Below are positions 35,106 to 42,251 of a stretch of DNA of 64,000 nucleotides, one piece after another. The notes under the pieces are model-generated. The model made no database searches, was not told the origin of the DNA, and was given only the letters and a program-made list of their open reading frames with translations. This stretch comes from an uncultured Rhodospirillales bacterium. GTDB lineage: Bacteria > Pseudomonadota > Alphaproteobacteria > CAAGCB01 > CAG-977. The position numbers and the translations under genes were made by a program. Numbering within the stretch: position 1 is the stretch's first letter; each line of letters opens with the position of its first letter. The stretch spans positions 95,492-159,491 of the forward strand of contig CACYSU010000003.1 of the NCBI GenBank assembly GCA_902777205.1. The letters are read 5' to 3'.

Positions 35106-35146
35106 GGGTGCGTTACCGTATCAAGCGGTAACACACCCTTTTCTTT
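35104..35146. terminator. Intrinsic terminator between the convergent glycan operon and tail-fibre genes
   Basis: AAGGGTGcGTTACCG...CGGTAACaCACCCTT followed by TTCTTT. Confidence 0.75.
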
Positions 35147-35474
35147 ACGGTTCTTCGGGAAATTCGCAATGTTCCGGAAATCCGGATTGAAGAGGAATAT
35201 CCCGCAGAAACTGGCGGTAAGTTGCGTATTTTTCTTTCATTTCCGTTGTTACGGGATAATCGGGCAGCATATATTTGTCTGTTTCTTTCAACAGGAGATT
35301 CCGCCGTTGTCTTATGTCGACGGCCAGTTCTTCGGCACTTTTTCCAGGGAAATCGGCAAACTGAAGATTTCCCTGTTCATCGATCGCCAGCGTTTTTCCT
35401 TTTTCATTCGCTTCGACGGCTTTTTTTGCATACAACTCAGGATTTTCAAGAGAAAATTGATACAAAGTCTTCAT
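35145..35474 (-). CDS. Phage tail fibre assembly chaperone-like protein
   Basis: IRQRRNLLLKETDKYMLPDYP..YRQFLRDIP.Q.GFP....P..P motif. Confidence 0.85.
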   Translation of the reverse strand: MKTLYQFSLENPELYAKKAVEANEKGKTLAIDEQGNLQFADFPGKSAEELAVDIRQRRNLLLKETDKYMLPDYPVTTEMKEKYATYRQFLRDIPLQSGFPEHCEFPEEP

Positions 35475-35491
35475 GTCTTTTTCCTTTCTGA

Positions 35492-36409
35492 TTAATATCC
35501 GCAGGCATACCAGCTGGTCGAGGTATAATTTGACCCCGCCCAGGAAATAGACGAGTTTGTCTTCTCCGTAATGGAAACGCTCTGAACGCCGTATGAATTA
35601 TAAATCACCGGCGTTGATACCACGGTGTAATTTGTATTGGAAAATGGCTTTGGCCAGGTGAACGATGCCGTCGCCCCCACAAGACTGCCTCCTTGTTCGA
35701 TCCAGCCGTCGGACCAGACACGATACCAGCTTGAACCGTTGTGCCAGCTTTGGACAATCACTGCCGGAGTTGTTTCCGCGACAGCGGAAGTTCCCCATTT
35801 GGCGACGCCGTAAACAGTTTTTGATGCGTAGACATCCTTATCTGCTTTATTTGCTAGCGTGTTCGCCGCTTCCAGCGCTTTATCTGTTGCCAGTTGAGCC
35901 TGTTCGTCCGCTGTTCGAGCCGATAGAGCCGCGTTTCCGGCTTGTTGCTCGGCCAAGGCTAACATTTCACGCGCTGTTTCCGCATAGCCTGCCGTATCGG
36001 ACACGCTTTGCCTGATCGATGGAATTAGGCTTGTAGCGTCTGTATCCTCGAACACGTCCACCGTGACCGCGCGATCTGCCTGTTCTTTCAACTGCTGTAT
36101 TTGCATCGTCAGTTTGTCGAAATCGCGTTCCAGCGTTTCGGCCGGCAAAATCTCGTTTTCACGATAGTCCGTTTCCTGCGTCAACGGCACTTCGCGCATT
36201 ATCACGATTTGCGCATTTTCCTCCGGCGCCGTCGCAAAAACCATATTCCCGTTCGAAACGGTCCAATCCGTCCGTTCCGTCTGAATGTCATTCAAAAGTT
36301 GTCTGACCGTTAAATGCTCCTTTTCCAAAAAAGGAAACGGGATCGCAAATGTCGTCGCAACCCCGTTTCCGATATAATTCACTTTGTTGGTTGTCGTACT
36401 TACCGTCAT
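35492..36409 (-). CDS. Short phage tail fibre protein (T7 gp17-like N-terminus, gp53-like C-terminus)
   Basis: N-terminal YIGNG..TTFAIPFPFL...REVPLTQETDY..LERDFDKLTMQIQQL; Ala-rich coiled linker; C-terminal SWYRVWSDGWIEQGG..WYACGY; GAGGT RBS. Confidence 0.85.
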   Translation of the reverse strand: MTVSTTTNKVNYIGNGVATTFAIPFPFLEKEHLTVRQLLNDIQTERTDWTVSNGNMVFATAPEENAQIVIMREVPLTQETDYRENEILPAETLERDFDKLTMQIQQLKEQADRAVTVDVFEDTDATSLIPSIRQSVSDTAGYAETAREMLALAEQQAGNAALSARTADEQAQLATDKALEAANTLANKADKDVYASKTVYGVAKWGTSAVAETTPAVIVQSWHNGSSWYRVWSDGWIEQGGSLVGATASFTWPKPFSNTNYTVVSTPVIYNSYGVQSVSITEKTNSSISWAGSNYTSTSWYACGY

Positions 36410-36422
36410 TTTTACCTCAAAT

Positions 36423-36448
36423 AAAAAAAAGCAGGGATAATTCCCTGC
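36423..36448 (-). terminator. Intrinsic terminator just upstream of the tail fibre RBS
   Basis: Minus strand GCAGGGA-attA-TCCCTGC followed by T8. Confidence 0.75.
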
Positions 36449-36519
36449 CGGTTCACAATCAACACGCTTCTTAAGATATAACATATTGTTATTGTTTTTG
36501 TTAAAATGTCAAGCTGTTT

Positions 36520-37251
36520 TTACCTTTCCCGTTCCGCCGACCGTTCCGCCGATCTTCTCTGTTCGTGGAGTTCGCGAAGTTGCCGGATCGTTTTGTGCTT
36601 CCGCGGAATAACCATTTGCGTCAGAGAGAAATCTCTGTCCTGAAACCGCGTAGCTTGCATCTCCCAACCGAACTCTTTGGCAACTTCGACTTGGTGTTGC
36701 CGGAGCATTTGCAGTTGTGGCTTTTTGAGTTTCAGCCGCTCCCGTCCGTTCGACATTTTCAACAAAATGTGTCCGTGCGTTGCCGATTGATGTGTGTGAA
36801 CGGCGTATAAATACCGATACCCTCTTTCCGCGAAAGGTTCCATATACCGCTCAATAAACCGGTAGGCTTCGTCCTCGCTGACGTTCATTCTTTTGGGGAA
36901 CGATACGATCAGATGAACCATTGCGTTTCCATTTTTCCGCCGCTGTTCCAGATCATAAGCGTCTATTGTTTCGTTCAGTTTTTCGGTCGGGATCAGTCGC
37001 CGTTCGTCATCATAAACACGCGCGTCCTTTTCCATTCCCTCCGAACCGTGAGCGATATAATGAGCGATGTTCTTCGCTCCCGTCGGTGATTTCACATAGA
37101 ACGCGACTTTAACCATAGCTTCGGGCGGCGGCACTTTGAAAGAAAGCGTCGCCCTCTGTCTTGCGGGCGGCGAATAGTGAACCGGAAAGCGTTGCCGCGC
37201 GACGTATATTCCTCGGATATGTTCGTCCAACCAGTTCCGTTTATTCGCCAT
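36520..37251 (-). CDS. MOBP/VirD2-like relaxase (short, 243 aa)
   Basis: EAMVKV, HYIAH (catalytic Tyr), HLIVSFP, AVHTHQSATHGHILL (3H motif). Confidence 0.85.
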   Translation of the reverse strand: MANKRNWLDEHIRGIYVARQRFPVHYSPPARQRATLSFKVPPPEAMVKVAFYVKSPTGAKNIAHYIAHGSEGMEKDARVYDDERRLIPTEKLNETIDAYDLEQRRKNGNAMVHLIVSFPKRMNVSEDEAYRFIERYMEPFAERGYRYLYAVHTHQSATHGHILLKMSNGRERLKLKKPQLQMLRQHQVEVAKEFGWEMQATRFQDRDFSLTQMVIPRKHKTIRQLRELHEQRRSAERSAERER

Positions 37252-37585
37252 AATACGCCGCCAAAAGTTTGTTGATTTTATCCCGGAGCGCGTGAAGTTC
37301 GCGACAAGCCTGCTGTAAATCCCGCAAAGTTTTTTCTTCAAGGGATTGCTTTTTTATCAACGTCGTGTTCAAAGCGCGGACGGCTTGATTGGTGTTGACG
37401 CCGACCTTTCGGGCTTGTTCTTCGAGCTTTGTCAGCAGGAGGATTTCGTCATAGTGCGGGATCTTCATCTGATGAAGCCCCGCAAGAATGAACAACCGGA
37501 TCAGGCGGGACGGAGATTGTTTTTCGGCGACAAGCGCGTCCCAAATTTCTTTTTCTATTCTGAACGATTTAACAATAAGCCTCAT
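37241..37585 (-). CDS. mobC: MobC-like relaxosome accessory protein (RHH)
   Basis: KSFRI RHH-like start, RKVGVNTNQAVRALN; overlaps the relaxase start. Confidence 0.8.
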   Translation of the reverse strand: MRLIVKSFRIEKEIWDALVAEKQSPSRLIRLFILAGLHQMKIPHYDEILLLTKLEEQARKVGVNTNQAVRALNTTLIKKQSLEEKTLRDLQQACRELHALRDKINKLLAAYYGE

Positions 37586-37656
37586 TTCAGCCTCTCTGTT
37601 TTATCGTTCAAGCGTGTGTGACGGGTAAAATTTTACAGCTGTTTGAGTGTGATTTC

Positions 37657-37810
37657 AAGGGCGGGTTGGCGGGGCATTTTTCGCTCTTTTTGTATTACAA
37701 AAAGGCTATCCTGCAAAAAAGTAGCCCTCAAGAGCATCAATCCCTTGCGAATCAGCCTTAAAACGCCTCAAAACAGCCTCAAAACTGACCGCGCCCGCCC
37801 AACCGCCCTT
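37657..37810 (+). other. Origin of transfer (oriT) with MOBP-type nick site
   Basis: TATCCTG^C at 37707-37714 matches the RP4-type YATCCTG^Y consensus. It is preceded by the inverted repeat CTTTTTGTA-t-TACAAAAAG (37686-37704) and lies upstream of mobC. Confidence 0.8.
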
Positions 37811-37876
37811 TGTTGTAGGCTATTCAAACGGTGTCGCCGCGTGTGCGGCGACCGATTTTTTTCGGGGAATACGGCT

Positions 37877-38149
37877 CTATTCGGAGCCGTATTCTTTCTG
37901 TTTGTGATAGATTTTAGGGGCGATTTTTGTTTCAAAGTAAGCCTCGAAGGCTTCGTTGAGCAGGTGCTTTTCCATCGCAAAAAACACCTCCGAAAGCCAA
38001 CCGCTTTTTGCCAAAGTCTTTAATGCGGGCAAATCCTCTTCCGGAACGTCCCCGCCGTGTATGAAGTTAAACAGGGAAGTGTCAAACTTCACGTCGGCGC
38101 GTTCTTCAAAGTCTGGTAAAAACTCCTCTATTAAATCCCAATACAACAC
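37877..38149 (-). CDS. Small acidic hypothetical protein (leading region)
   Basis: 90 aa, GTG start with AGGGAGG RBS, D/E-rich. Confidence 0.7.
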   Translation of the reverse strand: MLYWDLIEEFLPDFEERADVKFDTSLFNFIHGGDVPEEDLPALKTLAKSGWLSEVFFAMEKHLLNEAFEAYFETKIAPKIYHKQKEYGSE

Positions 38150-38152
38150 TGT

Positions 38153-38566
38153 TCAGTCCTCCCTGATAGCCTGACCGACGGGGCAAGGCGTGAAAAACAA
38201 ATCCAATTCCGCAAGCTCCAAAAGTTCGTCAACGGAGATGTATCCGGCCTCGAAACCGTATCCGAAACTCGCCCAACCGAACGCCTGAATTTGCTTTTCG
38301 GCGGTGTCTTTTTCGACGATATGGGCATCATAAGAACCGACAAAATAGTGCAGTTGAGCCAAAGCGTTTTTGCCTTGTCCGTCCGTTTCATAGACTTGCG
38401 GCATCGTTTTTATTCGCTCGGCAAGGTTCAGGATAATGTCCGCGAACGCTCCGGCTTCTTCCGAGTGATACAGATTGTCAATGAGGGTTTGAGCCTGCCG
38501 AACCGGAATAAACGGTTTAAGGGTCGTTTTCATTTCGTTTAAGGCTTGGTCGAATTTATCAGTCAT
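38153..38566 (-). CDS. DUF2958-like protein
   Basis: ETDGQG..A..HYF, AFGW..G..EAGYISVDEL..ELDLFF.P; start MTDKFD with GAAGGAG RBS. Confidence 0.75.
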   Translation of the reverse strand: MTDKFDQALNEMKTTLKPFIPVRQAQTLIDNLYHSEEAGAFADIILNLAERIKTMPQVYETDGQGKNALAQLHYFVGSYDAHIVEKDTAEKQIQAFGWASFGYGFEAGYISVDELLELAELDLFFTPCPVGQAIRED

Positions 38567-38774
38567 ATTGAAAGCTCCTTCTCTGTAAAAAGCACTTGTT
38601 AAAGGGTTTTTGGCGTCGCGCCTGAAACCCTTACGAGGTGCTTCGTCGGGGAGAAGAAAGCGGATTGTCATTCCAAGAAAAACGGAGGGGGATCACCAGG
38701 CTTGCAACGACACCGGAGCGAAAGTCGGGGACACCGTTTTTCTTCCGTTAGGCGGAGGGAATTGACAATCAAGA
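38549..38774. repeat. Structured leading-region repeat, copy 1
   Basis: Near-identical to 40337-40565; two long hairpins; includes RBS and first 6 codons of the downstream gene. Confidence 0.92.
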
Positions 38775-38814
38775 CAGAAAAAAACAAACGACTTGGTAGA
38801 AACGACCTCTGTAT

Positions 38815-39120
38815 AAAAACGACTGAGCCGTTTTGCCCCGACGCGGTCTGAAAGATAGGCGACGGTTTGCCGTCCCTTATATCTCTTATGGGGTCATTAT
38901 AAGCATAGAGTTTTTTTACAAAGAAAAAACGAACCCGTCACCTGACCGTGACGGGTTCTGAAAGATGGGTGCGTAATGTGCCCCCTTTATCTCTTATGCA
39001 TTTATTATAAGCATAGAGTTTTTCTTTTACAAGTCTTTTCTATCTGATATATTCCCTTTGCCGCACATACGGCTGAAAGGGGGTGAATAATGTGACCACC
39101 CTTTATCTCAAAATGGCGGC
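38815..39120 (-). ncRNA. Three tandem sRNA-like hairpin units (putative)
   Basis: Plus-strand CTGAAAG at 38848, 38958 and 39073, each flanked by hairpins. Minus-strand TATAAT in two units, with TTGTAA-17-TATAAT at 39004-39032. An 11-bp stem plus U-tract lies at 38921-38958. Confidence 0.5.
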
Positions 39121-39177
39121 GTATTTGTTGTTGATAATAGCATTACTGCTTGAAGTCATCAATAAATAACAAAGCCT

Positions 39178-39215
39178 GCCCGTGATGGTCTGACCGCTGT
39201 CACGGGCGTTTTTTT
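39178..39215 (+). terminator. Terminator-like hairpin
   Basis: GCCCGTGA...TCACGGGC followed by GTTTTTTT. Confidence 0.5.
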
Positions 39216-39290
39216 CTATCCGTTCGGGCGCAACTGTGTTGTGGAGTGGTTGGGCGAACGGATCGGGCGGCGGAAACCCCGCCCGAATTT

Positions 39291-39452
39291 TTAGAAATAA
39301 TAGGTCGTCTTTTCCAAATCATCGCGCTTGTATCCCTGCGCGATCAGTTCGTAAAATTTCGACAGTTGGGCGGCTTTGCTGTCAAAGTCAAAATGTTCTT
39401 TTTCGTAGCCGTCCGCGCCGTAAACCGTCAGTCTGAAAAAAGCAATCTTCAT
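39291..39452 (-). CDS. Small hypothetical protein downstream of ardC
   Basis: 53 aa MKIAFFRLTV...; GAGGAGG RBS; followed by a GC hairpin at ~39263-39286. Confidence 0.65.
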   Translation of the reverse strand: MKIAFFRLTVYGADGYEKEHFDFDSKAAQLSKFYELIAQGYKRDDLEKTTYYF

Positions 39453-39481
39453 TGTTCTTCCTCCTCTTTTGAGGGAAGCGG

Positions 39482-40354
39482 TCAAGCCGCTTCCCGTCCG
39501 ATTTCCTGGAATGTCAGCAGATAGTCAAAAGCCTTTTGCGCTTCGGAGCAGGCTTTGAAAAACGCCTTTTTGTCGTTCTTCAAAACCTTGAGCCAAGATT
39601 TCAGATACGCAAGATTGTTTTTGCTGAATTGGTAGTCATAGCCCAAATATCCGGCGACAAATCCCGCGCCGATGTCGGCGATCAGTTCCTCAAAGGCGTA
39701 GGATTCATTTCCGAAATGGCCTTTCATATCCCGGTTTAAGCGGTTCTTGTGTCCGGTCGCGTGGATCGTTTCGTGCGCCAAAGTCGAAACGAAGCCCGTT
39801 TCCGTTTTGAAGTCTTTTCTTTCCGGCATTAAGACAACATTGTTTTTCGGGTCGTAGCCTGCCAAAGTCGCGCCGTAAAAATAAGTGATGTCCGTGTTTT
39901 CAAAGAACGCCATCACGTCCTTTTCAACGCTAAATTCGGCTTTTTCTATGTCTTCGCCGAATCCCTCGACTTGCGAACCGTTAAACACGGAATAAGCGCG
40001 GGCGACAAAAGCCTGATTTTCGACTTCTTCGATGTCGCCGGTTTCGGTGTTTTCGATTTCGCATTTATAGGAAAGAGGTTTCCAGAAAACGATGGTCGTG
40101 GCCTTTGAGCCTTTCTTGACCTGATAGCCTTTATCCTGCCATTGGCGATAAGTGCCCCAAACGGACGAAGAAAAACCGTTGAACAAAGCGGCAAAGTTCA
40201 AAATCAGAATGTTGATTCCGCGATACGCCTTTTTTGTCGTGATGTTCCGGGCAAAAGAGGAAATGAACGGCTTTTCCCATTCGCCCGAAAAGTTTTCCAA
40301 GCGTTCGATGATGGTGTTTGAAACGGTTTCGATGATGTCGAATTTATCAGTCAT
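39482..40354 (-). CDS. ardC: ArdC antirestriction/ssDNA-binding protein (DUF1738 + zincin-like)
   Basis: WEKPF, YRGINIL, WGTYRQW..G.QVKKG.K, YSVFN..Q, LAHETIHATGH, YAFEELIA, YLKSWL. Confidence 0.92.
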   Translation of the reverse strand: MTDKFDIIETVSNTIIERLENFSGEWEKPFISSFARNITTKKAYRGINILILNFAALFNGFSSSVWGTYRQWQDKGYQVKKGSKATTIVFWKPLSYKCEIENTETGDIEEVENQAFVARAYSVFNGSQVEGFGEDIEKAEFSVEKDVMAFFENTDITYFYGATLAGYDPKNNVVLMPERKDFKTETGFVSTLAHETIHATGHKNRLNRDMKGHFGNESYAFEELIADIGAGFVAGYLGYDYQFSKNNLAYLKSWLKVLKNDKKAFFKACSEAQKAFDYLLTFQEIGREAA

Positions 40355-40565
40355 TTTGAAAGTTCCTTCTCTGTAAAAAGCACTTGTTAAAGGGTTTTTG
40401 GCATCGCGCCTGAAACCCTTTCGAGGTGCTTCGTCGGAGAGAAGAAAGCGATTGTCATATTCCAAGAAAAACGGAGGGGTATCTCCCTCGGCTTGCAACG
40501 ACACCGGAGCGAAAGTCGGGGAAACCGTTTTTCTTCCGTTAGGCGGAGGGAATTGACAATCAAGA
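40337..40565. repeat. Structured leading-region repeat, copy 2
   Basis: Near-identical to 38549-38774; sits in front of ardC. Confidence 0.92.
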
Positions 40566-40651: not shown

Positions 40652-41920
40652 ATGCCGGACAAGACTTATTTGTGCATCGACCTGAAATCGTTTTACGCGT
40701 CCGTGGAATGCGTTGAACGCGGTCTTGATCCGTTTAAGACGAACCTTGTCGTCGCCGATCCCGCGCGGGGACGCGGCGGAATCTGCCTTGCGATCACTCC
40801 GGCGATGAAAGATTTGGGAATACATAACCGTTGCCGCATTTTTGAAATACCGAAAAACGTCAAATACATCACGGCTCTGCCGCGAATGAAACGGTATATG
40901 GAAGTGTCCGCGGACATTTACGGCACTTATCTGAACTTCGTCGCCCCGGACGACATTCACCCGTATTCGATTGACGAAGTGTTCATCGACGCGACCAATT
41001 ATCTGCACATCTATCATAAAACGCCGAAAGAAATGGCTGTAATGCTGATGAACGCCGTTATGGAGCGAACCGGAATATGCGCGACGGCGGGAATTGGAAC
41101 GAACCTTTTTCTGGCGAAAGTCGCTTTGGATATAACGGCAAAGCACGTTCCCGACCATATCGGATATTTGGATATTCCGGCGTTTGAACGGACGCTGTGG
41201 CATCACCGTCCGATAACGGATATTTGGAACATCGGGAGAGGAATAGCCTTCCGGTTGGAAAAATACGGCATTTACGATCTTTACGGCGTCGCCCATTGCG
41301 ACGAACGGCTTTTGTATAAAGAGTTCGGCGTCAACGCGGAGTTCCTGATCGACCACGCGCATGGGCTGGAACCGTGCGAAATCAGGGATATTCACGCTTA
41401 TAAATCCAAGACGAACTCCATATCGAACAGTCAAATCCTCTTTTCCGACTATACGTTCGGCGACGCTTTGATTTGCCTGAAAGAAATGGTCGATATGCTT
41501 TCCCTCGAACTGATTGAAAAGCATATGGTCGCTTCCGGCATCTCTCTGGGGGTCGGATATTCCCGTGATGTCGCGCCGTCAACCGGCGGCTCGGAGCGAC
41601 TGTCCGAACAGACGTCCTCTTATGATAAGCTCGTCAAAGAGTTTGAAAGCATTTATCGCCGAACGACGCGCAGGACAGCCCCCATACGCAAGCTGTCGAT
41701 CGCTTTCACAAACATCGTTGACGAAGATCACGCGACTTTACAGCCGGATTTGTTCTCTCAAAGGGAAGAAGACGAAAAAGAGCGCAAAATGCAGGAGGCT
41801 GTTTTGGCTATCAAGCAAAAATTCGGGAAGAACGCTCTGCTTCGGGGAATGAGTTATACGGAAAAAGCGACGGCGCGGGTCAGAAACAAACTGATCGGAG
41901 GACACAATGGCGGCGAGTAA
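40652..41920 (+). CDS. Y-family (UmuC/ImpB/UvrX-like) error-prone DNA polymerase
   Basis: CIDLKSFYASVEC, YSIDEVFID, GIGTNLFLAKVALD, C-terminal KFGKNALL..RNKLIGGH. Confidence 0.92.
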   Translation: MPDKTYLCIDLKSFYASVECVERGLDPFKTNLVVADPARGRGGICLAITPAMKDLGIHNRCRIFEIPKNVKYITALPRMKRYMEVSADIYGTYLNFVAPDDIHPYSIDEVFIDATNYLHIYHKTPKEMAVMLMNAVMERTGICATAGIGTNLFLAKVALDITAKHVPDHIGYLDIPAFERTLWHHRPITDIWNIGRGIAFRLEKYGIYDLYGVAHCDERLLYKEFGVNAEFLIDHAHGLEPCEIRDIHAYKSKTNSISNSQILFSDYTFGDALICLKEMVDMLSLELIEKHMVASGISLGVGYSRDVAPSTGGSERLSEQTSSYDKLVKEFESIYRRTTRRTAPIRKLSIAFTNIVDEDHATLQPDLFSQREEDEKERKMQEAVLAIKQKFGKNALLRGMSYTEKATARVRNKLIGGHNGGE

Positions 41921-42251
41921 AGAAGAACGGGCGCGTCAATTCCTGCCGTTCAACGCTTTGACAGGGTATTACCGGATGATTTTGGATCGACAGCGCGTTT
42001 CCGAATCGAAAAAAGAACTGTCCAAAGACGAAACGGAAGCCTTGTCCGAAAAGATAAAGAGCCTCCGGCGGCACGACCTTGTTTCCGTAACGTATTACGA
42101 CCAGGACGCTTACATCACAAAGACGGGGTTGATTACGGATATTGACCTTACGTTCCAAACGCTGACGGTCGTGAAAACCAAGATAGCGTTTCAGGACATT
42201 TTTGACGTGGAAACACGAAAAGACTTTGCGAAAGGGCTTGAAACGGGATAA
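41907..42251 (+). CDS. YolD-like protein
   Basis: ERARQFLPFNALTGY, VTYY..AYITKTG.I..ID; overlaps the polymerase. Confidence 0.85.
   Translation: MAASKEERARQFLPFNALTGYYRMILDRQRVSESKKELSKDETEALSEKIKSLRRHDLVSVTYYDQDAYITKTGLITDIDLTFQTLTVVKTKIAFQDIFDVETRKDFAKGLETG

Follow-up and report, generated by a model that had tools for sequence, protein, structure and literature searches.

Features of the locus

Three repeat units of approximately 110 nt, designated C, B and A, were identified on the minus strand between positions 38815 and 39120 of the window (the entire 64-kb stretch of DNA that was analysed), with direct-repeat start-to-start spacings of 108, 110 and 114 nt (families D1, D4 and D6). An earlier examination of this DNA, the sequence-only reading, had described these repeats, and their tandem arrangement was borne out. 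It had also placed them in non-coding DNA, which was found to be incorrect in part, as unit A is overlapped by a 25-codon ORF on the plus strand. The features identified are collected in Table 1.

Table 1. Predicted features of the locus, with positions in the window
Feature	Position	Strand	Signals and basis
Unit C, second antitoxin-like unit	38815..38901	-	Perfect -10 (38896-38901), displaced -35, weak terminator
Unit B, predicted antitoxin sRNA, ~72 nt	38925..38997	-	5' stem-loop and 11-bp terminator (38931-38958)
Unit B promoter	39004..39032	-	TTGTAA, 17 nt, TATAAT; promoter scan
Promoter of the peptide (candidate toxin) gene	39026..39053	+	TTTACA, 16-nt spacer, TATATT, TG upstream; promoter scan; conserved in module alignments
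Unit A of the sequence-only reading	39040..39120	-	Complement of peptide mRNA 5' hairpin, Shine-Dalgarno, start codon and first codons
Predicted peptide mRNA, ~155 nt	39060..39216	+	5' hairpin 39060-39073, Shine-Dalgarno 39076-39086, ORF, terminator
25-codon ORF, GTG start, hydrophobic peptide, candidate type I toxin	39092..39169	+	ORF reading, alignments
Promoter-like site within the ORF	39134..39162	-	TTGATG, 17 nt, TATTAT with TG; promoter scan
Intrinsic terminator of the peptide mRNA	39177..39216	+	13-bp stem (39177-39208), then T run; compensatory pairs in relatives

The ORF is preceded by a strong, near-perfect Shine-Dalgarno sequence and opens with a weak start codon, being GTG here and TTG in most relatives. 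The start site of its mRNA was placed from the position of the -10 hexamer. Conservation of the DNA among relatives was found to extend past unit A into a plus-strand hairpin with a T run, and this terminator shows compensatory changes in an alignment of 20 relatives (alignment A3). The predicted mRNA helix that sequesters the Shine-Dalgarno sequence showed one-sided changes only when examined with RNAalifold. The anatomy of promoter, Shine-Dalgarno sequence, ORF and terminator was found to be repeated, initially in 15 and then in 27 distinct related modules.

Thirty-two distinct versions of the peptide were collected. Alignment of 17 peptides (alignment A1) revealed a conserved core, YLKAxAY...LLE, and a basic C-terminus, with six invariant and four nearly invariant columns. 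A pooled pN/pS of 0.42 was obtained for the 19 C-terminal codons of 21 distinct ORFs, with pN being lower than pS in 205 of 210 ORF pairs, these pairs not being independent of each other. The peptide is conserved under purifying selection. Between K7 and E21 its hydrophobic core extends over only 13 residues, a short length for a membrane span. A two-codon ATG-TGA frame (39090-39095) overlaps the GTG start, with a similar three-codon frame (ATG-CAT-TGA) identified at locus L005, and this short frame may be a start-stop element affecting initiation.

Among four sequencing runs compared, each in the form of assembled contigs, one metatranscriptome contig was found to span positions 39077-39269, being an assembled contig that carries no strand, ends or level. 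Two contigs of 151 nt, from a run that is probably of DNA and likewise giving no strand, ends or level, span 38914-39037 and 39052-39202.

On the opposite strand, the signals that the sequence-only reading had reported for the middle unit (B), a promoter with 17-nt spacing and an 11-bp terminator, were recovered at the same positions by promoter and terminator scans. The spacing between the -35 and -10 of the antitoxin promoter was 17-18 nt in 15/15 modules, with antitoxin terminators of several sequence types being found across the modules. These sRNA copies do not contain an ORF. The unit B promoter and the peptide promoter on the opposite strand share the base pairs of their -35 hexamers, and thus the two starts may compete. 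We know of no such arrangement of -35 hexamers in the TisB/IstR-1, ShoB/OhsC, ZorO/OrzO and DinQ/AgrB loci. The predicted starts of the unit B RNA and the peptide mRNA lie approximately 63 bp apart, back to back, making the two transcripts divergent and non-overlapping.

A promoter block of 15 nt is present in exactly two copies in the 64-kb window, both on the minus strand, at 38896-38910 (unit C) and 39004-39018 (unit B), where dinucleotide shuffles gave an expectation of 0.02 matches and 0/100 shuffles reached two. The third unit (A) had been said to lack this block, and the block is indeed absent from it; it does, however, carry a different minus-strand promoter-like site, situated within the ORF. 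Folding of the individual sRNAs, covering units A, B and C, gave for the minus strand of every unit a 5' stem-loop and a second hairpin, with Z-scores of -2.8 (C), -5.0 (B) and -1.9 (A). RNAalifold applied to the antitoxin alignment returned only four consensus pairs, because terminators of different types are misaligned in it. The proposal of independently promoted RNAs of approximately 75 nt is supported for unit B and probably for unit C, which look like separately promoted and terminated RNAs of approximately 72-75 nt, but not for unit A. Unit C possesses a -35 at the wrong distance and is not listed by the promoter scan. Among contigs from other samples (runs X3 and X4; 38824-39100), one carries a 34-nt deletion in the unit C terminator and another a different unit order.

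An imperfect palindrome around the -10, likened previously to an operator, was confirmed to be present (38996-39020 in unit B and 38888-38912 in unit C), and in 23/27 related modules the antitoxin -10 likewise lies within an inverted repeat, with the symmetry being kept while the letters change. A protein operator was rejected at this position, as symmetry retained under changing sequence is more in keeping with a hairpin than with a site for a protein. A repeat array of a type III (ToxIN-like) system was also rejected, given that no toxin protein gene follows the array and that the units own their promoters.

Complementarity between the predicted unit B RNA and the predicted peptide mRNA

The idea of a single family of three equal sRNAs was not upheld, as unit A belongs to the target, a gene on the opposite strand whose predicted mRNA encodes a small peptide. 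From the repeat alignment, unit A is the apparent template from which units B and C were copied, and these two units are best described as degenerate direct-repeat copies of the 5' end of the gene, in which the reading frame was lost and a promoter reading in the opposite direction was gained. Being copies of the 5' end that are transcribed oppositely, the RNAs of units B and C are predicted to be antisense in trans to the Shine-Dalgarno sequence, the start codon and the first codons. The suggestion of an antisense regulator thus appears to have named the right kind of function, with the unit B RNA being complementary to the Shine-Dalgarno and start region of the adjacent plus-strand peptide mRNA.

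The duplex of the unit B RNA with the local mRNA was calculated at -51.3 kcal/mol, compared to a mean of -15.4 kcal/mol (sd 3.3, best -30.6) for 500 shuffles of unit B. When 27 toxins were compared, the best partner of B was its own, and the best target of B lies 60 nt away. The start-codon loop of the mRNA was found to be complementary to the loop of B in the predicted folds and in the duplex. CRISPR-like or anti-CRISPR repeat units were set aside as a description of the array, being made unnecessary by this local target.

The comparison was extended to 27 distinct full modules with 19 distinct antitoxins, gathered from genomes and metagenomes, with near-identical or closely related modules inflating counts among the 27. 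The neighbouring antitoxin ranked best for its toxin in 19/27 modules, second in five, fourth in two and seventh in one. In the eight modules where the neighbour was not the best partner, one (F15) was clearly non-cognate. The mean duplex energy of cognate pairs was -47.1 kcal/mol, compared to -32.6 kcal/mol (sd 1.1) for permuted partners, a value that 0/10,000 permutations reached. [quoted passage not shown] Units A and B have a common origin, so that part of the cognate complementarity could stem from recent duplication or from gene conversion instead of selection for pairing. The stretch from the Shine-Dalgarno sequence to codon 7 was found to be hypervariable between modules, with constant flanks on either side.

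Distribution, putative orphan antitoxins and a sister subfamily

Related stretches were identified by DNA search in 9 of 28 genomes of the same family, the genome of the window being counted among these. A pattern derived from the peptide, applied to one genome each of 185,579 species, matched 15 loci, of which 14 were true modules, all in metagenome-assembled genomes (MAGs) of uncultured Alphaproteobacteria, with the remaining one being a chance match in a gammaproteobacterial MAG. A profile of the peptide matched 14/28 genomes of the family (which makes up the whole order in the sample) and 0/397 sampled genomes of other alphaproteobacterial families, while all matches from metagenomes were true (17/17). 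Up to six matches were present per genome (G005). Among the genomes and metagenomes searched, one family of uncultured gut Alphaproteobacteria accounted for every occurrence of the module. No match to 38560-39480 was found among plasmids in a distant-mode search, and the promoter-plus-start pattern of units B and C had no exact match in viral contigs.

The module of the window is situated in a small island that adjoins housekeeping genes and also carries genes for ArdC, MobC, a Y-family polymerase and a short relaxase, as well as remnants of tail fibres. Across this island (35145-37585, 40652-42251), phage tail-fibre and tail-assembly-chaperone genes were observed together with a 273-aa relaxase accompanied by MobC, ArdC, and the Y-family polymerase accompanied by a YolD-like gene; the island was found to lack genes for type IV secretion. 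At other sites the neighbours are mixed, including Bro-N, Mob_Pre, Rha, phage lysozyme, SocA and VirB8 at some, and autotransporter, FadL, flagellin, nitroreductase, NUDIX and UbiA genes at others. The array had been assigned to a conjugative leading region, and the copy in the window does lie between the ArdC and MobC/relaxase genes; its relatives, however, were found as often beside ordinary chromosomal genes as beside those of mobile elements. A leader of approximately 250 nt (38566-38815) separates unit C from a 137-aa ORF of no assigned family and holds a perfect 11-nt inverted repeat (38675-38685 / 38734-38744). Metagenome contigs over this leader are many, short and variable, and the leader may serve as an oriT or as a regulatory RNA.

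Unit C was found to form a duplex of -34.8 kcal/mol with the local mRNA (rank 5/27), compared to -48.5 kcal/mol with a toxin of the L004 type from another genome. A recognition region of another specificity suggests that unit C is an orphan antitoxin. It is absent from L070, the closest relative of the module in the window. A comparable extra unit, with a full promoter, was identified at the metagenome loci L067 and L080, where the best partner is a foreign toxin (-44.7 compared to -28.0 kcal/mol for the local one), and at L013 a toxin of the sister subfamily described below is paired with a foreign antitoxin. Taken together, unit C, these extra units and the L013 pairing indicate that orphan antitoxins of foreign specificity recur. 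Either unit C remains from a module that has been lost, or its RNA serves to neutralise a toxin encoded by a related element.

A broader role for such orphans may be proposed, although we regard it as rather doubtful. The region from the Shine-Dalgarno sequence to codon 7 would serve as a hypervariable 'address' for many mutually exclusive toxin and antitoxin specificities in one bacterial family, and mobile elements would use orphan antitoxins, such as unit C and the second unit at L067/L080, as an RNA-based anti-addiction 'skeleton key' by which addiction modules on resident or rival elements are disarmed.

A second, diverged copy was identified in the same genome (contig C13:58020-58190; L053:1400-1640), between UbiA-like and deaminase/outer-membrane-protein genes. 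This copy was found by a weaker profile match, and similar loci with related peptides of 23-25 aa occur in other genomes. It encodes a 25-aa peptide of the E7/K21 type, with the antitoxin being located downstream in convergent orientation and sharing a bidirectional terminator. The antitoxin of this sister subfamily is also complementary to the Shine-Dalgarno and start region (-32.5 kcal/mol, compared to -15.5 with sd 3.1 when shuffled).

Positions 7 and 21 of the peptide (39110-39112 and 39152-39154) were found to be K/E in 25/32 and E/K in 7/32 distinct peptides and never K/K or E/E, using a regular expression that permitted all four charge combinations. K/E and E/K represent a swap between the two subfamilies, and since this was probably one evolutionary event the pattern is to be taken as a hint and not as a statistic. 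The 14 residues separating the two positions would fit an intermolecular salt bridge between antiparallel helices, by analogy with TisB. The swap also prompts the proposal, which we regard as rather doubtful in the same way as the 'skeleton key' role, that the peptide kills as a dimer of antiparallel molecules joined through K7-E21 salt bridges.

Recombinants between units A and B in which both promoters were lost together were found at seven places (L030, L026, L054, L041, L023, L052 and L057). In some cases the intact module is retained by another genome at the same chromosomal site, with L031 being intact where L030, L026 and L054 carry the deletion, and likewise L040 where L041 is deleted. 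For the site common to L031 and L030 the autotransporter flanks are shown, with the shared flanks of L026 and L054 being taken from sequence.

Relation to known systems and interpretation

A permissive Rfam scan of 37500-40500 produced eight matches at chance level, all far below their gathering scores, of which the best was ncr1175 (24.1 bits compared to a gathering score of 60, and on the wrong strand); no Rfam antitoxin-sRNA family was among the eight weak matches. That the units belong to no recognised RNA family, as had been stated from the sequence, was thus in agreement with this check, where no match attained a gathering score. The peptide matched no Pfam or NCBIfam family at E values up to 10 and nothing among PDB sequences, and three neighbouring small ORFs matched nothing in Pfam or NCBIfam. 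Among the papers returned by a search for type I systems in Alphaproteobacteria, none was found to concern such a system by its title or abstract opening. Supplementary tables by Fozo et al. from 2010 reportedly contain thousands of candidate ORFs and could hold relatives.

Described systems were compared using two sources (PMC4147584 and PMC8594479). Type I toxins are characterised by a short mRNA (150-400 nt) and a small, usually hydrophobic protein of 20-60 aa, with T1TAdb holding 24 families (PMC8594479). The mRNA predicted here, at approximately 155 nt, and its hydrophobic ORF of 25 aa, with coding constraint present, fall within these sizes.

The par system (Fst / RNA I - RNA II) of Enterococcus faecalis plasmid pAD1 resembles the module in its small hydrophobic peptide toxin. 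In par, the antitoxin pairs with the mRNA via 5' direct repeats and ribosome binding is blocked (PMC4147584), while the convergent layout of par with a shared terminator is that of the sister subfamily locus L053 (PMC4147584). The copy in the 64-kb window is divergent and not convergent, although pairing through direct repeats still holds, and its complementary stretch is one continuous run of approximately 35 nt, compared to the two short repeats of par. No Pfam family was matched, and hence no sequence relation to Fst was detected; in addition, the host is a Gram-negative alphaproteobacterium, whereas T1TAdb places Fst/RNAII among Gram-positive families (PMC8594479).

In gene order, the locus is similar to TisB/IstR-1, ShoB/OhsC, ZorO/OrzO and DinQ/AgrB of E. 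coli, where the antitoxin gene also lies 5' of the toxin, divergent and non-overlapping (PMC4147584, PMC8594479). The antitoxins of the TisB/IstR-1 group, however, pair in a long 5' UTR away from the translation start (PMC4147584), while the pairing predicted here covers the Shine-Dalgarno sequence and start codon. Two tandem homologous sRNAs, AgrA and AgrB, are present at the dinQ locus, of which only the better-matched one acts (PMC8594479), a situation that parallels units B and C.

The Ibs toxins of E. coli are very short and hydrophobic and occur in several copies per genome, with each antisense Sib RNA discriminating its own target via variable recognition regions, features that the module here shares. 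Sib RNAs lie exactly opposite the ibs ORF (PMC8594479), whereas the putative antitoxin here is a separate, non-overlapping copy. By its predicted mode of pairing, with direct repeats over the ribosome-binding site, the module resembles Fst/RNAII (PMC4147584, PMC8594479), and by sequence, as searched in Rfam, Pfam and NCBIfam, it belongs to none of the families compared.

Computation has shown the signals of the gene, the constraint on its coding sequence and a cognate complementarity that co-varies from locus to locus. The locus probably represents a family of type I toxin-antitoxin modules not described before, as judged against Rfam, Pfam, NCBIfam and PDB sequences, for which we infer transcription, toxicity, repression and any role in stabilising the element. 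Regarding the peptide, it is size, hydrophobicity and gene organisation, and these only, that suggest toxicity. The plus-strand gene would be a self-contained candidate toxin gene with a strong promoter, a 5' hairpin, a near-perfect Shine-Dalgarno sequence, a weak start and a terminator. The promoter whose -35 overlaps that of the toxin would drive divergent transcription of the unit B RNA of approximately 72 nt, the 5' domain of which is predicted to be complementary in trans to the Shine-Dalgarno sequence, start codon and first codons of the toxin mRNA. First contact would be made between the loop of B and the mRNA loop in which the start codon lies, this loop-loop step being presumed, and the duplex would then spread over the ribosome-binding site, so that translation would be blocked and cleavage probably triggered. 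Were unit B to be lost, the stable mRNA would be translated and the peptide would damage the inner membrane.

An unlikely but credible alternative is that the peptide is a regulated small membrane protein and no toxin, having a benign role (membrane modulator, exclusion factor or complex subunit), with unit B being an antisense translational regulator and no addiction or killing being involved. The gene signals, coding constraint and complementarity fit such a protein equally well, many copies reside at ordinary chromosomal sites, and toxicity is a property that we only infer. Against this, the weak start with a strong Shine-Dalgarno sequence, the dedicated and constitutive-looking antisense RNA over the ribosome-binding site, the diverged copies (up to six, in G005) and the hypervariable cognate regions are listed hallmarks of type I systems (PMC8594479, PMC4147584), and decay variants were found to drop both promoters together.

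It is quite improbable that the real antitoxin is instead a cis-antisense RNA, reading across unit A from the promoter-like site within the ORF (39162..39134), with units B and C being duplicated leftovers or the 3' part of a longer transcript. The TATA of the -10-like hexamer of this site depends on a rare isoleucine codon, ATA, at 39137-39139, which was used in 18/18 distinct ORFs compared to 12.4% of isoleucine codons genome-wide; the retention of this codon, along with the minus-strand site itself (TTGATG, 17 nt, TATTAT with TG) being listed by the promoter scan, makes a cis-antisense RNA possible. The -10 of unit B aligns with the position of this site, and unit A possesses no minus-strand terminator, so that an RNA initiated there would run into unit B. 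The -35-like hexamer, however, overlaps conserved codons, and its conservation may therefore come from coding. Furthermore, unit B has its own conserved -35, -10 and terminator in all modules and co-varies with the toxin, which would not be needed of a leftover, and in the convergent subfamily the antitoxin is placed elsewhere, with the only ORF examined there having ATC at the codon in question.

The original proposal, in which three independent sRNAs enter recipients early in conjugation and either act as decoys against host defence or regulate distant targets, is highly improbable. In its favour are the position of the copy in the window between the ArdC and MobC/relaxase genes, the sRNA-gene features of units B and C, and the lack of a good local partner for unit C. 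Against it, unit A encodes a peptide on the opposite strand, B finds its best target 60 nt away, relatives occur at chromosomal sites without transfer genes, and nothing points to decoys against defence systems. Single-stranded DNA signals, such as hairpin promoters or priming sites (Frpo/ssi-like) acting on the transferred strand, have next to no probability, for while hairpins conserved in structure and varying in sequence (including the -10 inverted repeat in 23/27 modules) and mobilisation genes near the copy in the window would suit them, they leave unexplained the purifying selection on the peptide, the cognate complementarity, the intrinsic terminators with T runs and the copies at chromosomal sites.

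For annotation, the label of non-coding DNA should be avoided for 38815-39120, and a single RNA family should not be used to model its three repeats. Type I systems are hard to find because their genes are tiny and rarely annotated. The dozens of natural cognate pairs provide a ready-made specificity table for RNA-RNA recognition, and one family is seen to use both divergent and convergent gene layouts. The orphan antitoxins, together with the natural deletion derivatives, show how modules decay and may compete. With this locus, uncultured gut Alphaproteobacteria gain a new family of peptides and a new family of predicted sRNAs.
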